IMG/VR virus record: IMGVR_UViG_2531839374_000022
DNA: 10,285 nucleotides
Reading direction: 5' to 3' (one strand)
Source of the DNA: a virus
Lineage: Duplodnaviria; Heunggongvirae; Uroviricota; Caudoviricetes
Below the pieces are notes generated by a model. The model searched no databases and was not told the DNA's origin. It saw only the letters and a program-made list of their open reading frames with translations. The stretch's first letter is position 1; each line of letters begins with the position of its first letter. This document shows positions 3,853-10,285 of this stretch, in pieces. Made by a program: the position numbers and the translations under genes.

Positions 3853-4043
3853 TTTTCACCCCCAAGAATTACCAGCTCTGCACGGGCATCGTTAACCAAA
3901 GATGAGCACGCTTTAATCGCATCCACGACATCAGCAGCGTCCATTTCTTCAGCCGAAAGACTGACAGCAACCAGGACAGCCGCTGTTTGCTCGATTAATT
4001 GAAGTGCGGACGTAAGGCGAGGGGTATTAATTGAGTTATTCAT
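3849..4043 (-). CDS. Hypothetical small protein (about 64 aa)
   Basis: Track ORF 3849..4100 begins with GTG; the internal ATG at 4043 (MNNSINTPRL...) overlaps the upstream stop by 8 nt and has a G-rich Shine-Dalgarno, so 4043 is the preferred start. Confidence 0.5.
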   Translation of the reverse strand: MNNSINTPRLTSALQLIEQTAAVLVAVSLSAEEMDAADVVDAIKACSSLVNDARAELVILGGEK

Positions 4044-4254
4044 TGGTTGCCCCCCGTTTTCCTGACATTTCGCCACCTTCCAGCAGGAAATGAACGTCAC
4101 GAACGGCGAGATCCAATATCGCGAGTAACGCCTTCAGTTTTTCGTCTCGTGAGGGAGAGTTGCTCACCAGAATGTCATTAATCACTTCTGTCAGTGTGAT
4201 GATCTGGCTTGTGCGTTCGAGGGGATCCATATGCACATCGTAGGTTTTAATCAT
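4036..4254 (-). CDS. Hypothetical small protein (72 aa)
   Basis: Track ORF 4036..4344; preferred start is the ATG at 4254 (MIKTYDVHMDPLE...) with a GGAGGTG Shine-Dalgarno; it overlaps the stop of the upstream ORF (ATGATTAA). Confidence 0.55.
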   Translation of the reverse strand: MIKTYDVHMDPLERTSQIITLTEVINDILVSNSPSRDEKLKALLAILDLAVRDVHFLLEGGEMSGKRGATNE

Positions 4255-4441
4255 GTGCCACCTCCATGCGGATACGACCAGCAAAAAAGCAGACGTGATC
4301 GCGCACCAGAGAACGGCGAGCATCGCGTTCAGACTCGGCAGCAATATGATGAATTTTGGCGGTAATTGTCGGGCAATCGCGGCGAACTGCGGCGATAATC
4401 CAGATAAATTGCGGTTTTTGGGTAGGGGTAGTAGCCAGCAT
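4247..4441 (-). CDS. Small protein (64 aa), first gene after the structured leader; possibly Icd-like (host cell division inhibitor family of P1/P4-like elements)
   Basis: C-terminal 64 codons of track ORF 4247..5002. ATG at 4441 has a strong AAGGAGG Shine-Dalgarno 7 nt upstream. Sequence MLATTPTQKPQFIWIIAAVRR...FFAGRIRMEVAHD. The Icd-like assignment rests on position directly after a C4/CI-like leader and a remembered resemblance; it is not verified. Confidence 0.5.
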   Translation of the reverse strand: MLATTPTQKPQFIWIIAAVRRDCPTITAKIHHIAAESERDARRSLVRDHVCFFAGRIRMEVAHD

Positions 4442-4444
4442 AGC

Positions 4445-4710
4445 GGCAGCCTCCTTTGTGTTTAAGGAGTCACCGCCTGAGTTTCCACGCTCTGAAATGG
4501 CGGTGACGTTAGCAGGGGTGGAAATACCGGACACAAAGGAAACCGGCCTACGCGAACGTAGCCCCACTAACGCCACCATTGATACAGTACGGACTAGGCC
4601 GCTGATTTGATGTGCGTAGTGATCGGACACAAAAAAAGACGCTTTCGGCGTCTGTGTCGCCCTGAGTGTGTTCGGGTTTCCACGCCCGGTTGCTGATTTT
4701 GCAGCAACGC
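4445..4710 (-). ncRNA. Candidate structured leader / antisense-RNA immunity region (P4 CI / P1 C4-like): hairpins, direct repeats and a terminator
   Basis: On the minus strand: hairpin GTTGCTG-CAAAAT-CAGCAAC (plus 4689-4708); direct repeat GCGTGGAAAC at plus 4676-4685 and 4481-4490; a complementary TTTCCAC at plus 4518-4524; direct repeat TTTGTGTCCG at plus 4624-4633 and 4528-4537; UUCG-loop hairpin at plus 4548-4561; 9-bp stem GTCACCGCC/GGCGGTGAC (plus 4469-4477 and 4499-4507) enclosing one repeat copy, immediately upstream of the Shine-Dalgarno at 4449-4454. The family assignment is inference. Confidence 0.35.
4631..4653 (-). terminator. Rho-independent terminator (minus strand)
   Basis: Minus strand reads AGACGC-CGAAA-GCGUCU followed by UUUUUUU; 6-bp GC-rich stem at plus 4637-4642 / 4648-4653, then a run of seven T on the minus strand (plus 4631-4637, the last shared with the stem). 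Confidence 0.55.
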
Positions 4711-4940
4711 TTGGACTATAACAGCTTTTCTCTGCTAGGTGGTCATACCAGATAAAACCGTAACCCTTTAAGAGTTTTTCCTGTGCACGGCTCACCATCT
4801 TTTTGTTGAGGGTAAGCGCCTCGCGTACTGGTAACGGAACTCCGGGCGCTGCGGTATCAATATCAGGTTTTATAAGGTTGTAAGGGTTAACATTTGTTAA
4901 CAGGCCAGCCAGATTAAAGGCTTCTTTCTGGGCGGCAGGT

Positions 4941-5123
4941 TCATTCAGTATCACGGCGCACCTCCACGAACTCATTAACGAATCTCTCCAAAGGCTGAAC
5001 ACATGGCGACTGATAGCCCTCGCGGTAAAAGGTCACTCGGTTATGCTCGACGCGCTCAACGGTCACTACAGCCCCGTGCGAATCCTTGTAACGGCTTCCC
5101 GGCATCGGATTGTGGTTACGCAT
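4941..5123 (-). CDS. Hypothetical small protein (60 aa)
   Basis: Track ORF; ATG preceded by GGAGGT Shine-Dalgarno; start overlaps the stop of the antirepressor-like gene by 8 nt (translational coupling). Confidence 0.5.
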   Translation of the reverse strand: MRNHNPMPGSRYKDSHGAVVTVERVEHNRVTFYREGYQSPCVQPLERFVNEFVEVRRDTE

Positions 5124-5925
5124 GGTTTACCTCCAGACGTTTAGCGAGCCAGCGTTGCGACAGGCGGGTGAGTTCTCCTTTGCGCTGCTCATATTCCATG
5201 CCCATATCAATTAACGTGATATTGGTGCTTTCGAGATAGGCGAGGTGTTCAAGCTGTGCTGCGTTCATGCTGTCCCGTGGTTCGCCAGTAATGCCATTTG
5301 CCTGCGCCCACTGCTTCGCCGTCATGCCACCCAGCACGATACGGGCGATCATGTTGCTCTCGTTGCTGTAGTGGCGCTGCTGCGTCGTTTTGCCCATCTC
5401 GGCACGGGCCATATTCAGCGCATCGCACATTGGCTTAAAGTTGTTTGCGGCACTGAGACGGGCTTTTAGCTGGCGACGATAGCGGGCGGCGATTTCAGGC
5501 ACGCTACGCTGTAATTCTTCCTCGCACTGGATGAAATAACGGCGGATAGCGCGGCCCTGCTCGTTGCGTTCAACCATTGCCACTTCTTTAGCCATATCCA
5601 GCGATAGCAGGTAATCATGCTCTATTTGCTGGCGAGTTTTTGCGCTCGCCCGTTTTGGCGTGCTCAAATTTTCAACACGGATAAAATCGGTTCCGGCAAT
5701 AAAACCGTACTGGTCAATTCGGCCTTTAATCCAGTTAGTAAAGTCGCGGCCCACCCCCAGCGCTTTATGCAACGCCTTAGCGCTCACAATATTGGCTTCA
5801 CGCCCGCCAATGCGTCCGGCAATAACGGGAACAATAGCGGCAAAGTCGTTGCCGTTAATTACTCCCGTGTTAACGTTGGGTTGCGGGGCGGCCCCCGAAC
5901 TGAATCGGCTTTTTTCGATAGTCAT
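5116..5925 (-). CDS. Phage antirepressor-like protein (AntA/AntB N-terminal motif plus KilAC-like region)
   Basis: Track ORF 5116..5985 begins with TTG; preferred start is the ATG at 5925 (MTIEKSRF...) with a GGAG Shine-Dalgarno. Motifs SAKALHKALGVGRDFTNWIKGRIDQYGFIAGTDFI (AntA-type) and LSLDMAKEVAMVERNEQGRAIRRYFIQCEEEL (typical of phage antirepressors). Confidence 0.72.
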   Translation of the reverse strand: MTIEKSRFSSGAAPQPNVNTGVINGNDFAAIVPVIAGRIGGREANIVSAKALHKALGVGRDFTNWIKGRIDQYGFIAGTDFIRVENLSTPKRASAKTRQQIEHDYLLSLDMAKEVAMVERNEQGRAIRRYFIQCEEELQRSVPEIAARYRRQLKARLSAANNFKPMCDALNMARAEMGKTTQQRHYSNESNMIARIVLGGMTAKQWAQANGITGEPRDSMNAAQLEHLAYLESTNITLIDMGMEYEQRKGELTRLSQRWLAKRLEVNHA

Positions 5926-5938
5926 ATTTTCGGCTCCG

Positions 5939-6370
5939 TTATGCGGCGGTGAGATTGTCCGGGTATAGATTGAGAGTGTCGGCAATTTCAGGCTGAGAAA
6001 GTCCCTGATAGCCGCCAGCGTCGGCGTTATGGTTCACAAGCCGAATAACTTTTAGAACGTCACCGCGCCCGGTAAAGCGATAGCGTAAATGTGACCCTAT
6101 CCCGTCGGGGTTCTTTTCGTCTATACGCTCAAGCTGAATATCAAGCCTGCGCTCTAACTCGCTGGCGTAGTTCCTTCCAGACGAAAGGCGGCAATAACGC
6201 AGAATGTCATTTTCTGTCCATCCCTCTATACCAGTACGCAGCATATAGACTCTGGCACGATGCTTTTTCGGTGTGCGCTTTGGTGCTTGAAGGGATTTTG
6301 TAAGGGGCGTAACATCAGATACGCGAATATCTGAATTAGCCGCCTGTAATGGGCGGTTTTTCTTTTCCAT
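5939..6370 (-). CDS. Hypothetical protein (143 aa), translationally coupled to alpA
   Basis: Track ORF; its ATG shares the A of the alpA stop codon (TGATG overlap). Basic N-terminus; no motif recognised. Confidence 0.6.
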   Translation of the reverse strand: MEKKNRPLQAANSDIRVSDVTPLTKSLQAPKRTPKKHRARVYMLRTGIEGWTENDILRYCRLSSGRNYASELERRLDIQLERIDEKNPDGIGSHLRYRFTGRGDVLKVIRLVNHNADAGGYQGLSQPEIADTLNLYPDNLTAA

Positions 6371-6573
6371 CAGGCCACCTTCCCGCGGCGTTCTGCCAGC
6401 CAGTTGTGAATCTCAACCGCATCAAACGCAGTTATTTTTTCTCCCAGCTTTACCGGACGTGGTAGTGAACCGTTTCTTACTTTACGGTCGATGGTGGATA
6501 CACTAACGCCCAGCAATTCAGCCAGGCGGAAGCGTCTGATATAGCCTTTTGTAGGGATAGTGTCGATGTTCAT
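6370..6573 (-). CDS. alpA: AlpA/Vis-family helix-turn-helix regulator (prophage CP4-57-type regulatory protein / excisionase-like)
   Basis: 67 aa; RFRLAELLGVSVSTIDRKVRNGSLPRPVKLGEKITAFDAVEIHNWL fits the AlpA-family helix-turn-helix pattern; GAGG Shine-Dalgarno upstream of the ATG at 6573. Confidence 0.85.
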   Translation of the reverse strand: MNIDTIPTKGYIRRFRLAELLGVSVSTIDRKVRNGSLPRPVKLGEKITAFDAVEIHNWLAERRGKVA

Positions 6574-6617: not shown

Positions 6618-6628
6618 TGGATTTGCCC

Positions 6629-7534
6629 CTATATTTCCAGACATCTGTTATCACTTAACCCATTACAAGCCCGCTGCCGCAGATATTCCCGTGGCGAGCG
6701 ATAACCCAGCGCACTATGCGGATGCCATTCGTTATAATGTTCGAACGCCTCTGCAAGGTTCTTTGCTGCCGTTAACCCGTCTGGTTTGGGCATGATACTG
6801 ATGTAGTCACGCTTTATCGTTTTCACGAAGCTCTCTGCTATTCCGTTACTCTCCGGACTCCGCACCGCCGTGTTCTTCGGTTCAAGTCCCAACATCCGGG
6901 CGAACTGGCGTGTTTCATTAGCCCGGTAGCATGAACCATTATCCGTCAGCCACTCCACTGGAGACGACGGAAGATCGTTGCCGAAGCGGCGTTCCACCGC
7001 TCCCAGCATGACGTCCTGTACTGTTTCACTGTTGAAGCCGCCGGTAGTCACCGCCCAGTGCAGTGCCTCACGATCACAGCAGTCCAGCGCGAACGTGACA
7101 CGCAGTCTCTCTCCGTTATCACAGCAGAACTCGAACCCGTCAGAGCACCATCGCTGATTGCTTTCTTTCACGGCCACTCTGCCTGTATGTGCCCGTTTCG
7201 ATGGCGGTACAGCAGGTTTTCGCTCAAGCAACAGCGCATTCTGGCGCATGATCCGGTAAACACGTTTGGCATTGATCGCAGGCATACCATCAAGTTCTGC
7301 CTGTCTGCGAAGCAGCGCCCATACCCGACGATAACCATACGTGGGCAGCTCTCCGATAACATGGTGTATACGGAGAAGCACATCCGTATCATCAGTGTGA
7401 CGACTGCGGCGGCCATCCATCCAGTCATCGGTTCGTCTGAGAATGACGTGCAACTGCGCACGCGACACCCGGAGACAACGGCTGACTAAGCTTACTCCCC
7501 ATCCCCGGGCAATAAGGGCGCGTGCGCTATCCAC
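6629..7534 (-). CDS. insD: IS2 transposase OrfB (InsD), 301 aa
   Basis: Track ORF; protein [34 protein letters not shown]... matches IS2 InsD as remembered; GTG start; expressed as the OrfAB fusion by -1 frameshifting. Confidence 0.95.
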
Positions 7535-7857
7535 TTTTTTGCCCGTCCATATTCAACGGCTTCTTTGAGGAGTTCATTTTCCATCGTTTTCTTGCCGAGC
7601 AGGCGCTGGAGTTCTTTAATCTGCTTCATGGCGGCAGCAAGTTCAGAGGCAGGAACAACCTGTTCTCCGGCGGCCACAGCAGTAAGACTTCCTTCCTGGT
7701 ATTGCTTACGCCAGAGAAATAACTGGCTGGCTGCTACACCATGTTGCCGGGCAACGAGGGAGACCGTCATCCCCGGTTCAAAGCTCTGCTGAACAATTGC
7801 GATCTTTTCCTGTGTGGTACGCCGTCTGCGTTTCTCCGGCCCTAAGACATCAATCAT
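7492..7857 (-). CDS. insC: IS2 transposase OrfA (InsC)
   Basis: Track ORF 7492..7902 has an upstream GTG extension; the canonical InsC start [26 protein letters not shown]... is the ATG at 7857. Confidence 0.95.
7534..7541 (-). other. Probable IS2 -1 programmed ribosomal frameshift site (A6G slippery run) in the insC/insD overlap
   Basis: Minus strand reads GGGCAAAAAAGTGG in the InsC/InsD overlap (plus ccactttttt gcccg at about 7531-7545). Frameshifting at an A6G motif is established for IS2/IS3-family elements; the exact position here is by eye. Confidence 0.5.
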
Positions 7858-7948
7858 CTGTACTCCAATGACTAGTCTAAAAACTAGTATTAAGACTATC
7901 ACTTATTTAAGTGATACTGGTTGTCTGGAGATTCAGGGGGCCAGTCTA

Positions 7949-8025: not shown

Positions 8026-8870
8026 CTTTTTTTCCCTGCCGTGGTGCGTTCTTCCGGTGTTCTGTCTGTGTCGGCTATGAGTTTCTTCAGGTAATCTATG
8101 GATGGCTCATCATAGCCGCCCCCCAAAAGCGCCCAGTGGTTTATTGTGGCGTTCGCCCATGCTTCGTTGGTTTCCTTCCCGTTCTTCCCTTTACACTCTT
8201 CTGGGTAGTGCCGCTTCACATAAATCAACGCCAAGAGGCAAATTTCGCGCTTTTGCCTGTGGCGCTCTCTGTTTCCGTGCTCAACGTTTTTAACATCCTC
8301 ATAAAGAGCTTGTAAGTTTATGCGAGTTTCGGGGCTGTATATGGGCTGGTTTTTGTCCATGCATTCGCCGATATATTCAACCCACGGCCTTGTTATGTAC
8401 AAATCCTCTACGGATATTTCGTGGAAGGCATGTTTTGTATAATCGAGAAAAAAATAATAATTCGCACTTACGTCTAGTTCTCTTTTTCTGTGTGCGGGGC
8501 TGAATATGCGTGCGGGAGTGTCAATAGAATCAAGCCCTGCGATGTCGAGTATATAGGAGGCGTTAACATGCCATAGCCCAAGCACATGGCAATCTATATG
8601 ATTTACAACGCCTGCCTTAAAGCTTTTTTCGTCCTCTACTTCAGTGATTATGTCGGCAAGTAATAAGCAGTCTTCTTTGACGTCTGGGAATAAAGAGCAA
8701 TTGCGGTAAAGACTCGCGATGCTATGTAATGTGCCGTCGTAGCCGCAAAGGTACGCGCTCAAATATATAGATTCTGCCGCCGCCATAATCAAAAGATCAT
8801 CAATATCTATTTCTAATAATTCGGCTGCTCTGTTAAGCCTGAAAAAAGGGGCGGGTGGTAATTTTTTCAT
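8022..8870 (-). CDS. Hypothetical protein (282 aa), AT-rich orphan cargo gene between the integrase and alpA
   Basis: Track ORF; ATG at 8870 preceded by AGGTGA Shine-Dalgarno. The DNA is visibly more AT-rich than the rest of the window (long A/T runs; exact GC not computed). N-terminus FFRLNRAAELLEIDIDDLL is weakly helix-turn-helix-like; no catalytic motif recognised. Confidence 0.65.
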   Translation of the reverse strand: MKKLPPAPFFRLNRAAELLEIDIDDLLIMAAAESIYLSAYLCGYDGTLHSIASLYRNCSLFPDVKEDCLLLADIITEVEDEKSFKAGVVNHIDCHVLGLWHVNASYILDIAGLDSIDTPARIFSPAHRKRELDVSANYYFFLDYTKHAFHEISVEDLYITRPWVEYIGECMDKNQPIYSPETRINLQALYEDVKNVEHGNRERHRQKREICLLALIYVKRHYPEECKGKNGKETNEAWANATINHWALLGGGYDEPSIDYLKKLIADTDRTPEERTTAGKKR

Positions 8871-8965
8871 TGCGTCACCTTTTACGCTGCGCCTTATTTT
8901 GTGATTGAGCCAGGCGGTAAGGCTTCCCGCTTTTCGCCCCGTCGAGCTAGGCTCAATCTATTCAG

Positions 8966-10285
8966 TTAGTTCGCCCTTCTGAGAGGCGTTACGTTGTAGT
9001 CTTTTCCGCTTTCCAGTGCCACCAGCAGATCAGCCCACTGTGCCAGTGCTGCTTTACGCTCATCAAAATACTGATGGCGGTTATAAATCCCCTCTACGCC
9101 CTTAATGCGATGATTGAGGCATCGTTCCGCCACAACAGGATCAACACCCAACGCTGCTAAATGAGTACGTGCGGTGCGTCGAAAGTCGTGAATCGTGAAA
9201 TTAGGCACATCCGGCATTTCGGCGCGAACCTTAGCCAGTGCTACGGGTAAAGTGCTTTCCTGAATATGTGGGATCATTCTGTTTTGCATCTTCCTGGCCG
9301 GAAGCACCCATGCGCTATTACATGAAAAGGTGTGTAGCTCTCTCAACCATTCAACGGCTGGGGAAGGTAGAGGTATATCAATAGGGTCTCCGTTTTTGCT
9401 GCGTTCTTCCGGCAAATGCCATACCGCACCATCTAAATCAAACTCTTCCCATCGTGCGGCGCATAATTCCATTTTGCGGACGCATAACGCTAACAGTAAT
9501 TTGAACGTGATTTCGTTCTGGCGACTGAATCCCTTAGCCGTGCGCATGGCTTTGAATAGCTGGATTAACTCATCGCGGGTTAACCAGCGGTCACGGGCAG
9601 CTTCTTTCCCTCCGGCGTCTGCCACCTCAAAGGCTGAACAGGGGTTAATCTCTAGCGCGTGCCGTTTGATTCCGTAGTCGAATATGCGGCGCGTCCATCT
9701 CAGCACGTCCGTTGCTATGGTCGGCGCTCCACGGTCAACAATACCTTTCAGCATGTCATCGATATGGCGCGGTTTCACGTCCTCTACCTTCATGCTGCCA
9801 ATGCAGGGGTTTATATCTTTGTCGATACGGCGGCGGAGTATATCGGGGTGCTTCCAGCGCGGGAGGATCTGACGCTCAAAGTATTCAGCGGCAAGCTCTG
9901 AAACGCGCATAGCGTTCTTCTCTGCTTCCATCTTCGCCAGTGCTTCGGTTTTGCGCTTCTGCTTCTCTCCTGCAACGTCATAGCCCAGCGCAACGCGAGC
10001 CGATAGCTCTTTGGCTGTCTCTCTGGCCTTTGATAGTGATAGCTCGCTATACGAACCAATTAGCATGGCGCGGGACTTCCCTGCGAGTTTATAGCGGAAT
10101 CTCCATGTGGGGGTTTTGTCGGCTTCACGGTAACGTAGGTATAAACCGTTACCGTCTGCCCGCCCCTCGAATCGCTCTCCGCTCTTAATCCATGCGCGGA
10201 TCTGCATGTCTGTTAGTTTTGGCATTTTGCGAATATCCAAACTTTGAATAGGGGGTGTACCCAAAGCAATGTACCCAAACCTCAT
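8966..10285 (-). CDS. int: Tyrosine-type site-specific integrase, P4-like family (N-terminal arm-binding domain + catalytic domain)
   Basis: Track ORF of 439 aa reaching the window edge. N-terminal GNGLYLRYREADKTPTWRFRYKLAGKSRAMLIGSY matches the P4-type arm-binding (DUF4102-like) pattern; C-terminal HDFRRTARTHLAALG...NHRIKGVEGIYNRHQY carries the R/H-x-x-R/Y catalytic signature. A more typical start is the internal ATG at 10225 (MPKLTDMQIRAWIK...). Confidence 0.9.
   Translation of the reverse strand: MRFGYIALGTPPIQSLDIRKMPKLTDMQIRAWIKSGERFEGRADGNGLYLRYREADKTPTWRFRYKLAGKSRAMLIGSYSELSLSKARETAKELSARVALGYDVAGEKQKRKTEALAKMEAEKNAMRVSELAAEYFERQILPRWKHPDILRRRIDKDINPCIGSMKVEDVKPRHIDDMLKGIVDRGAPTIATDVLRWTRRIFDYGIKRHALEINPCSAFEVADAGGKEAARDRWLTRDELIQLFKAMRTAKGFSRQNEITFKLLLALCVRKMELCAARWEEFDLDGAVWHLPEERSKNGDPIDIPLPSPAVEWLRELHTFSCNSAWVLPARKMQNRMIPHIQESTLPVALAKVRAEMPDVPNFTIHDFRRTARTHLAALGVDPVVAERCLNHRIKGVEGIYNRHQYFDERKAALAQWADLLVALESGKDYNVTPLRRAN

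Follow-up and report, generated by a model that had tools for sequence, protein, structure and literature searches.

The locus and its features

The DNA analysed here, called the window, is the complete 10,285-nucleotide (nt) stretch of the viral record IMGVR_UViG_2531839374_000022 (Caudoviricetes). On its minus strand, an open reading frame (ORF) of 251 codons, hereafter the long frame, passes through an intrinsic terminator and a set of RNA elements and ends in a 64-amino-acid (aa) gene resembling kil of satellite phage P4, to which we refer as kil (Table 1). An earlier note on this DNA had pointed to the frame and offered two explanations: either the RNA element lies inside a longer protein gene, or structural constraint on the RNA happens to keep the frame open.

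The 64-aa protein matched NCBIfam NF033153 ('host cell division inhibitor Icd-like') with 71.7 bits over ORF residues 199-246. It is 39% identical to P4 Kil, with which it has AAVRR...ERxARRSLVRD in common. The gene has its own Shine-Dalgarno (SD) sequence, and the C4 RNA ends 55 nt upstream of it. The gene is followed by small ORFs and a primase, and an ORF at 4036-4344 shows that the +1 frame, too, passes through kil without a stop in the window.

Table 1. Coordinates of the features in the window
Feature	Position	Strand	Evidence or remark
Eta-like long frame, 251-codon ORF ending in the nested kil/icd-like gene	4247..5002	−	ORF listing; GTG start
Probable true start of the long frame: GGAGG (4961-4965), 6-nt spacer, GTG (4952-4954)	4952..4965	−	Sequence; annotation pipeline (PGAP) in relatives
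Kil/Icd-like gene, 64 aa, nested in the long frame	4247..4441	−	NF033153; P4 Kil homology; substitution pattern
Downstream C4 targets a2/b2, seqC equivalent	4450..4488	−	Motif matching; covariation
C4/CI-type antisense immunity RNA	4496..4583	−	Rfam RF01695 (clan CL00128), 80.3 bits (threshold 45)
IsrK/seqA-like leader RNA with a1 target and intrinsic terminator	4632..4721	−	Rfam isrK and c4-a1b1
Candidate internal constitutive promoter, counterpart of P4 PLE: extended −10 TGtTATAGT	4715..4723	−	Inferred from conserved position
DUF4222 gene, 60 aa, upstream coupling partner of the long frame	4941..5123	−	Pfam PF13973, E 4.7e-23; PGAP in relatives
Next gene, 72 aa, +1 frame relative to kil	4036..4254	−	Start overlaps kil stop (ATGATTAA)
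AntA-family gene (antA)	5116-5985
alpA	6370-6573
IS2-like insertion	~6626-7939		InsC/InsD-type ORFs 7492-7902 and 6629-7534
int-alpA RNA	8891-8957	−	Rfam RF02996, 60.6 bits; closely follows the integrase gene (8966-10285)

Extent and start of the long frame

Measured from stop to stop, the frame was open from 5032 to 4247 (786 nt). The 251-aa ORF that begins at GTG 5002 crosses the intrinsic terminator, the GTGGAAA direct repeats and the AAGGAGG SD sequence with its ATG at 4441, in agreement with the earlier note. When the 499-nt gap between the DUF4222 stop and the kil ATG (4442-4940) was shuffled with dinucleotides preserved, the frame of the 64-aa gene was free of stops in only 73 of 200,000 shuffles (P ~3.7e-4), indicating that the long frame exceeds the chance expectation.

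An ORF begun at GTG 5002 shares 62 nt with the 60-aa DUF4222 ORF, and this overlap had been taken as an argument against the full-length protein. The argument fails because an in-frame GTG at 4952-4954 has its own GGAGG, overlaps DUF4222 (stop at 4941-4943) by just 14 nt and is used in relatives by the Prokaryotic Genome Annotation Pipeline (PGAP). The equivalent GTG, with an identical 14-nt overlap, was chosen as the coding sequence (CDS) start in two Escherichia coli relatives (L074 and L076; L numbers designate the compared loci), and the GTG of the window aligns with M1 of the 'ash family' CDSs in L002 and L003. The long frame probably does not begin at GTG 5002; begun at 4952-4954, it would give a product of 235 aa.

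RNA elements inside the frame

Three Rfam families, scored at their gathering thresholds, were matched on the same strand as the frame. In addition to C4, isrK (RF01394) was found at 4632-4708, terminator included (72.1 bits; threshold 50), and c4-a1b1 (RF03163) at 4669-4721 (55.1 bits; threshold 46.7). A terminator scan placed the stem of the intrinsic terminator at 4637-4653, followed by a T-run. The b′ loop of the C4 RNA (TTTCCTTTGTGT, 4531-4542) is complementary to b2 (ACACAAAGGAGG, 4450-4461), which covers the SD sequence of the 64-aa gene (GGAGG, 4450-4454). The a′ junction segment, TTTCCAC at 4518-4524, is complementary to both copies of the GTGGAAA direct repeat, namely a1 (4677-4683) and a2 (4482-4488). 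These pairings were obtained by exact-motif matching; duplex prediction with the whole C4 molecule and the flanks yielded uninformative global duplexes. At most other loci, complementarity of b1 to the C4 loop was exact over 7-9 nt, and in the window it was weak. The b1 position within isrK (4659-4670) is degenerate in the window and in L001, reading ACACACTCAGGG as against ACACAAAGGAGG in b2.

The three-way-junction fold of C4 showed compensatory changes at 15 of 28 stem pairs among 65 distinct sequences, with almost none broken. Segments a1, a′ and a2 covaried with one another, as did b′ and b2, giving 30 a/b specificity pairs across loci. In 66 loci (L006-L071), at least eight 'a' motifs and many 'b' loop motifs were combined into these pairs, and the 'a' motif differed even between close relatives (GTGGAAA in the window, TTGGAAC in L075). 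Sequence comparison suggests that immunity specificity diversifies fast through module exchange.

The isrK match begins at 4708, with the TGtTATAGT box 7 nt ahead of it. In an 18-locus alignment, TATAGT or TACAGT was equally spaced from the isrK-like start in P4 and in most of the loci shown. We infer promoter activity at 4715-4723 from this conserved position.

Conservation of the frame across loci

We fetched 66 Enterobacterales loci (L006-L071) through the Kil protein only, so that the sample was unbiased by the state of the upstream frame. Upstream of kil, C4 was detected in 65 of them and an isrK-like element in 64. The set of 68 loci with both RNA elements includes the window, P4 and E. 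coli relatives; these loci are related by descent, and the counts given below are not counts of independent events. In 59 of the 68 loci (58 unique sequences), the open kil frame extended to 60 nt or more ahead of the isrK-like start. The other sense frames closed sooner, within 8-137 nt for +1 and 19-157 nt for +2. Spacing between the isrK start and the kil ATG took nine values (243, 267, 270, 279, 282, 285, 288, 318 and 327 nt), all of them multiples of 3.

In the codon alignment of the 58 unique sequences, which had been preselected for an open frame, frame 0 upstream of kil contained no stop, with 77.4 expected from column composition. The control frames were near expectation (154 stops against 154.6 in frame 1; 255 against 270.6 in frame 2). 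Each of five segments likewise had no stop against 10-19 expected. The deficit extended to the segments outside the RNA elements, where 18.1 stops were expected in the pre-promoter segment, 16.3 in spacer 1 and 18.8 in spacer 2, and none was observed in any of the three.

An in-frame start codon lay between −20 and +15 nt from the stop of an upstream ORF in 58 of the 68 loci, counting same-strand upstream ORFs of 50 codons or more; the start assignments behind this count are unreliable for seven loci with a +1 frame (L001-L006 and L010). The coupled start was usually an ATG directly on the stop of an alpA-like gene. By PGAP coordinates, the long frame overlapped the upstream gene by 7 nt in L002 and by 4 nt in L003. 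Among E. coli relatives, the N-terminal part of the frame was a mosaic of unrelated segments; the total frame lengths were 708, 771, 831, 837 and 873 nt, and all versions were open. One of these versions, in L075 (E. coli X14-3, 526-1296), is an in-frame deletion of most of antA and all of DUF4222, so that the first ~25 antA codons (MNIEKSRLISEAAP...) continue at NEPAAQKE of the eta-like frame.

A DNA motif, TTTCG(T/A)GACCAGTACGCGC, recurred once or twice in the variable stretch of the frame that precedes the candidate internal promoter (window, 4822-4832, minus strand; L007, 1569 and 1595; L008, 1557; L009, 1380 and 1671). Its role may be that of a protein-binding site or of a recombination module.

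Substitution pattern and the Phage_ASH family

The earlier note had proposed an analysis of codon periodicity and substitution pattern. Carried out here, it revealed periodicity in kil only, and the profile was flat upstream (Table 2). There is no amino-acid-level constraint upstream of kil, and kil, the last 64 codons, is the sole part of the frame under protein-level selection.

Table 2. Codon-position entropy and ratio of nonsynonymous to synonymous substitution (dN/dS, pooled Nei-Gojobori) along the frame
Segment	Entropy at positions 1/2/3	dN/dS
Pre-isrK	0.75/0.81/0.75	0.80
isrK	0.52/0.50/0.46	1.11
Spacer 1	0.91/1.03/1.07	0.53
C4	0.57/0.52/0.58	0.76
Spacer 2	0.82/0.95/0.75	0.98
kil	0.47/0.40/1.01	0.25
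Upstream non-RNA parts, pooled		0.74
RNA parts, pooled		0.89

Residues 95-198 of the ORF matched Pfam PF10554 (Phage_ASH) with E 2.4e-23 (83.1 bits; threshold 26), over profile positions 1-106 of 107. The matched residues correspond to nt ~4409-4720 and coincide with isrK/a1b1, C4 and a2/b2. The 'conserved residues' of PF10554 changed with RNA pairing specificity, appearing as GRGNP, GRENP, GRRNP or GIGVP. A protein domain would be expected to show third-position bias and purifying selection, and neither was found upstream of kil. The PF10554 profile therefore appears to be conserved RNA sequence read in one frame and not a protein fold. We also considered that PF10554 is spurious and the ORF untranslated; the 'untranslated' half of this proposal was rejected by the frame-conservation data.

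In P4 (L005, 7888-8584), PF10554 matches an obsolete 'cI protein' CDS that overlies the CI RNA. In a survey of P4-like satellites (PMC8628076), Ash was equated with epsilon and PF10554 served as the epsilon marker. The real P4 epsilon protein, which acts in helper derepression, belongs to PF25738, a family separate from PF10554. The marker of the survey probably detects the eta/CI locus instead of epsilon.

Comparison with the P4 eta/kil locus

In phage P4 (NC_001609), a 214-codon ORF on the minus strand (8168-8812) runs through an isrK-like element (8615-8692) and a C4-family RNA (8420-8507), which is the P4 CI immunity RNA, and ends in the 65-aa Kil. It belongs to the leader of the left operon, where CI has seqA and seqC as targets. 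The CDS annotated in GenBank as 'cI gene product' (8168-8584) is a member of PF10554. Forti et al. 1999 (J Bacteriol 181:5225) reportedly gave an account of P4 eta/kil that agrees with the later summary. That summary (PMC10111431) describes the P4 frame as the nested genes eta and kil, with Kil a truncated form made from its own start and full-length Eta translatable only from an upstream late promoter. It describes an internal constitutive promoter, places CI and seqA sites inside eta, reports coupling to the upstream alpA homologue, and states that eta translation prevents termination.

The window has the same order of parts, from the coupled start through the internal promoter (in the window a candidate), the isrK/seqA-like element with its terminator, C4/CI and the SD target to an in-frame Kil. 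The Pfam and NCBIfam matches are identical in the two, and Kil is of similar length (65 aa in P4, 64 aa in the window). As in P4, a longer ORF extends from upstream of the promoter candidate through the equivalents of seqA, cI and seqC, and its start is coupled to the stop of an upstream gene, although that gene is DUF4222 and not an alpA homologue. There are further differences. About 80 codons lie ahead of the internal promoter in the window, compared with about 24 in P4-type loci; the promoter candidate of the window is an extended −10 without a TTGCxT −35; the b1 target is degenerate; and Kil is only 39% identical. Cell killing or inhibition of division on overexpression of Kil belongs to the P4 arrangement, and the 64-aa protein may, by its homology, have such an effect.

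Considering the observed homology to P4 eta/kil, the embedded RNAs, the conservation of the frame, the lack of amino-acid constraint and the covariation of RNA and targets, we think it likely that the frame is the counterpart of the nested P4 genes eta and kil, and that its openness has been selected as a path for ribosomes past RNA immunity. By these comparisons, the frame is probably translated and is selected to stay open, and translation would matter where the product does not.

In the mechanism that we propose, the use of the promoters, the processing of the RNA, the dependence on Rho and the prevention of termination by translation are taken from work on P4 and P1. Transcripts from the internal promoter, starting near 4708, would lack the start codon of the long frame, and their leader would be untranslated. 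They would give rise to a 77-nt IsrK/seqA-like RNA ending at the intrinsic terminator and, after processing, to the C4/CI antisense RNA. The a′ and b′ segments of C4 would pair with a2/b2 (4450-4488) over the kil SD sequence, and also with a1 in the leader, leaving kil untranslated and causing an early stop of transcription. In this immune state the downstream replication genes would be silent. Transcripts from a promoter further upstream, in the alpA, antA, DUF4222 operon, would in turn carry the coupled GGAGG-GTG start at 4952-4965. Ribosomes entering there could traverse the promoter region, the terminator hairpin, C4 and the targets and continue into kil. Their passage would prevent RNA folding and pairing and block Rho, allowing read-through to the primase operon regardless of immunity. 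Selection would then act on the open frame and its start, with the amino acids of the first ~170 codons dictated by the RNA elements. Such a model predicts that an open frame and a coupled start are selected without amino-acid constraint.

Comparison with other immunity loci

Phage D6, a relative of P1, has a C4 match (76 bits) and an isrK match (59 bits) upstream of an Icd-like gene. No sense ORF runs through these RNAs in D6; stops occur in both spacers, and every sense frame is closed, indicating that RNA conservation alone does not keep a frame open. The immI loci of P1 and P7 (c4, icd and ant), compared here via D6, resemble the window in having Rfam C4 and isrK/a1b1 ahead of an Icd-like gene, with the RNA directed at the ribosome-binding site of that gene. 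They differ in that the icd-like gene of D6 is not nested in a longer ORF and in that the antirepressor lies downstream of icd in D6 and upstream in the window. No coupled antirepressor follows icd in the window, where the AntA-family gene is found upstream, at 5116-5985. Membership of the locus in a P1-type immI operon was rejected on the lack of a downstream antirepressor in the window and of a long frame in D6.

The Gifsy-1 locus IsrK-orf45-anrP of Salmonella also resembles the window in having a leader RNA with a terminator of the same Rfam family, isrK. There, short IsrK activates the translation of orf45 and anrP in trans (PMC4825925). The authors of that study regarded P4 seqA as a structural homologue and noted that a processed downstream RNA, STnc1160, may act like CI. 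Unlike the window, Gifsy-1 has no described long frame across isrK, and what is regulated there is an antirepressor, not Kil.

In lambdoid phage mEp460 (L073, 1021-2172), isrK and C4 are enclosed by a 383-aa ORF coupled to an upstream gene. The ORF is annotated as Rha/antirepressor and has the architecture Phage_ASH plus Phage_pRha. mEp460 and Shiga toxin (Stx) phages therefore share with the window a long, upstream-coupled ORF enclosing isrK and C4, but the frame ends in a Phage_pRha antirepressor domain and not in Kil. This arrangement indicates that the design extends beyond kil; the antirepressor genes of lambdoid and Stx phages seem to be served by an escort frame as well.

Evaluation of alternative explanations

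Of the two explanations in the earlier note, the first, a longer gene enclosing the RNA element, is essentially correct, but the gene is an unusual one: the frame is open and in register across dozens of species, yet upstream of kil it is not selected for its amino-acid sequence. The second, that RNA structure keeps the frame open, is rejected because stops are equally avoided in the spacers and the pre-promoter part, outside the RNA elements, because length variants differ by multiples of 3, and because the D6 frames are closed. In the form in which the frame is open by accident of embedded RNA conservation and nothing reads it, the second explanation can appeal to the facts that about one third of the frame is RNA sequence conserved for other reasons and that no amino-acid-level constraint was found. 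The chance probability in the window, the absence of stops from the variable parts against 16-19 expected with the other frames at expectation, the coupled starts in 58 of 68 loci and the same 3n lengths and D6 frames all speak against it. We consider this accidental origin highly improbable and already largely refuted. Independence of the loci is not required for the arguments from the 3n indels, the N-terminal mosaics and the D6 control.

The long frame might instead encode a functional protein whose amino-acid sequence matters, namely a regulator of the 'Ash family' or the Bro network that ends in an Icd/Kil domain. The PF10554 match far above threshold, the 256-355-aa 'ash family' or 'Icd-like' proteins that PGAP annotates at this position, the listing of Phage_ASH among Bro-network domains (PMC10111431) and the fusion of the ASH part to Phage_pRha in mEp460 are all in its favour. 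Against these stand the equally variable codon positions upstream and the pooled dN/dS of 0.74-0.89 there versus 0.25 in kil, the coincidence of the PF10554 match with RNA elements whose pairing specificity its residues follow, and the exchange of the N-terminal part for unrelated segments in close relatives. We therefore regard such a regulator as unlikely. It seems quite improbable, too, that the frame was inherited as an eta-like frame and is disused in this element because the IS2-like insertion just upstream of alpA cut the operon from its native promoter. Neither the frame and its SD-GTG start nor the RNA elements and kil are disrupted, and other promoters, or an outward promoter of the insertion, could feed the operon.

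Several observations weigh against the reading of the frame as a counterpart of eta/kil. The native promoter of the alpA-antA-DUF4222-eta operon may have been cut off by the IS2-like insertion. The start of the frame is coupled to DUF4222, which antA precedes, and not to an alpA/vis homologue as in P4. A generic sigma-70 scan of 4200-5200 that required both hexamers found no promoter; the scan demands a −35 box and missed the TATAGT box. The stop-avoidance test used the preselected loci, from which just two had been excluded for stops. The account of P4 comes from a secondary summary (PMC10111431), and translation, promoter activity and termination are proposed for this element from sequence comparison and the P4 and P1 work.

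The remaining points against this reading concern the register of the frame. A 1-nt difference between the SD sequence and the ATG (window 4442; L001 2182; L003 1515) shifts the register of the long frame, and it is +1 to kil in six close relatives (L001-L004, L006 and L010), whereas it is in register in the window and P4. L001 is the closest relative of the window (97.4% identity); its +1 frame stops 47 nt before the kil stop, and PGAP labels it 'frameshifted'. In the other five, the +1 frame passes through kil without a stop and fuses with the gene that follows; the fused frames of L002 and L003 are annotated as 'ash family proteins' of 342 and 355 aa. The frame is broken in two P4-type loci, L031 and L058. 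These loci indicate that in-frame nesting with kil is not obligatory, and the +1 variants suggest that what is conserved is a translatable path through the leader and not a fusion with Kil.

The annotation of eta/kil-type loci is unstable, with 'ash family protein', 'Icd-like protein' and 'pseudogene' alternating. L003 and L004 (850-1920) share a 1071-nt open frame, with 12 positions that differ. PGAP reports one 355-aa 'ash family protein' in L003 and an 'ash family' pseudogene with a separate Icd-like gene in L004.

Genetic context and significance

The upstream operon has the order alpA, a 143-aa ORF, antA and DUF4222, all with overlapping ends. The IS2-like element has terminal inverted repeats of 33 nt (6626-6658 and 7907-7939) and is inserted ~50 nt upstream of alpA. 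The int-alpA RNA beside the integrase gene fits a P4-like or phage-inducible chromosomal island (PICI)-like integrative element.

Judged by sequence, the locus in the window is a homologue of P4 eta/kil in a different neighbourhood, and the type of mechanism is already known from P4. The coding-versus-RNA question for 4247-5002 is thereby settled: it is both, in the manner worked out for P4. A less expected by-product of the analysis is the view of PF10554 as RNA read in one frame. More broadly, PF10554 may be no protein domain but the translated shadow of an isrK/seqA-C4/CI-target cassette. The long frame would then be a ribosome-escort ORF, selected only for openness and a coupled start in P4-like satellites, PICI-like islands and lambdoid phages. 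It would let upstream transcripts override RNA immunity, and it could be rewired without loss by a 1-nt indel, which changes its register with kil or the next gene, or by in-frame deletions. To us the chances for and against this generalization seem evenly balanced. If it is true, 'ash family protein' labels and the use of PF10554 as a marker of P4 epsilon denote an RNA locus.

For annotation, the analysis carries a warning, because RNA read in one frame appears to underlie both a Pfam family and a product name in common use at NCBI. For the biology of these elements, the sequence comparisons suggest that a translation-based override of antisense-RNA immunity is conserved across many Enterobacterales elements and is maintained purely for translatability.

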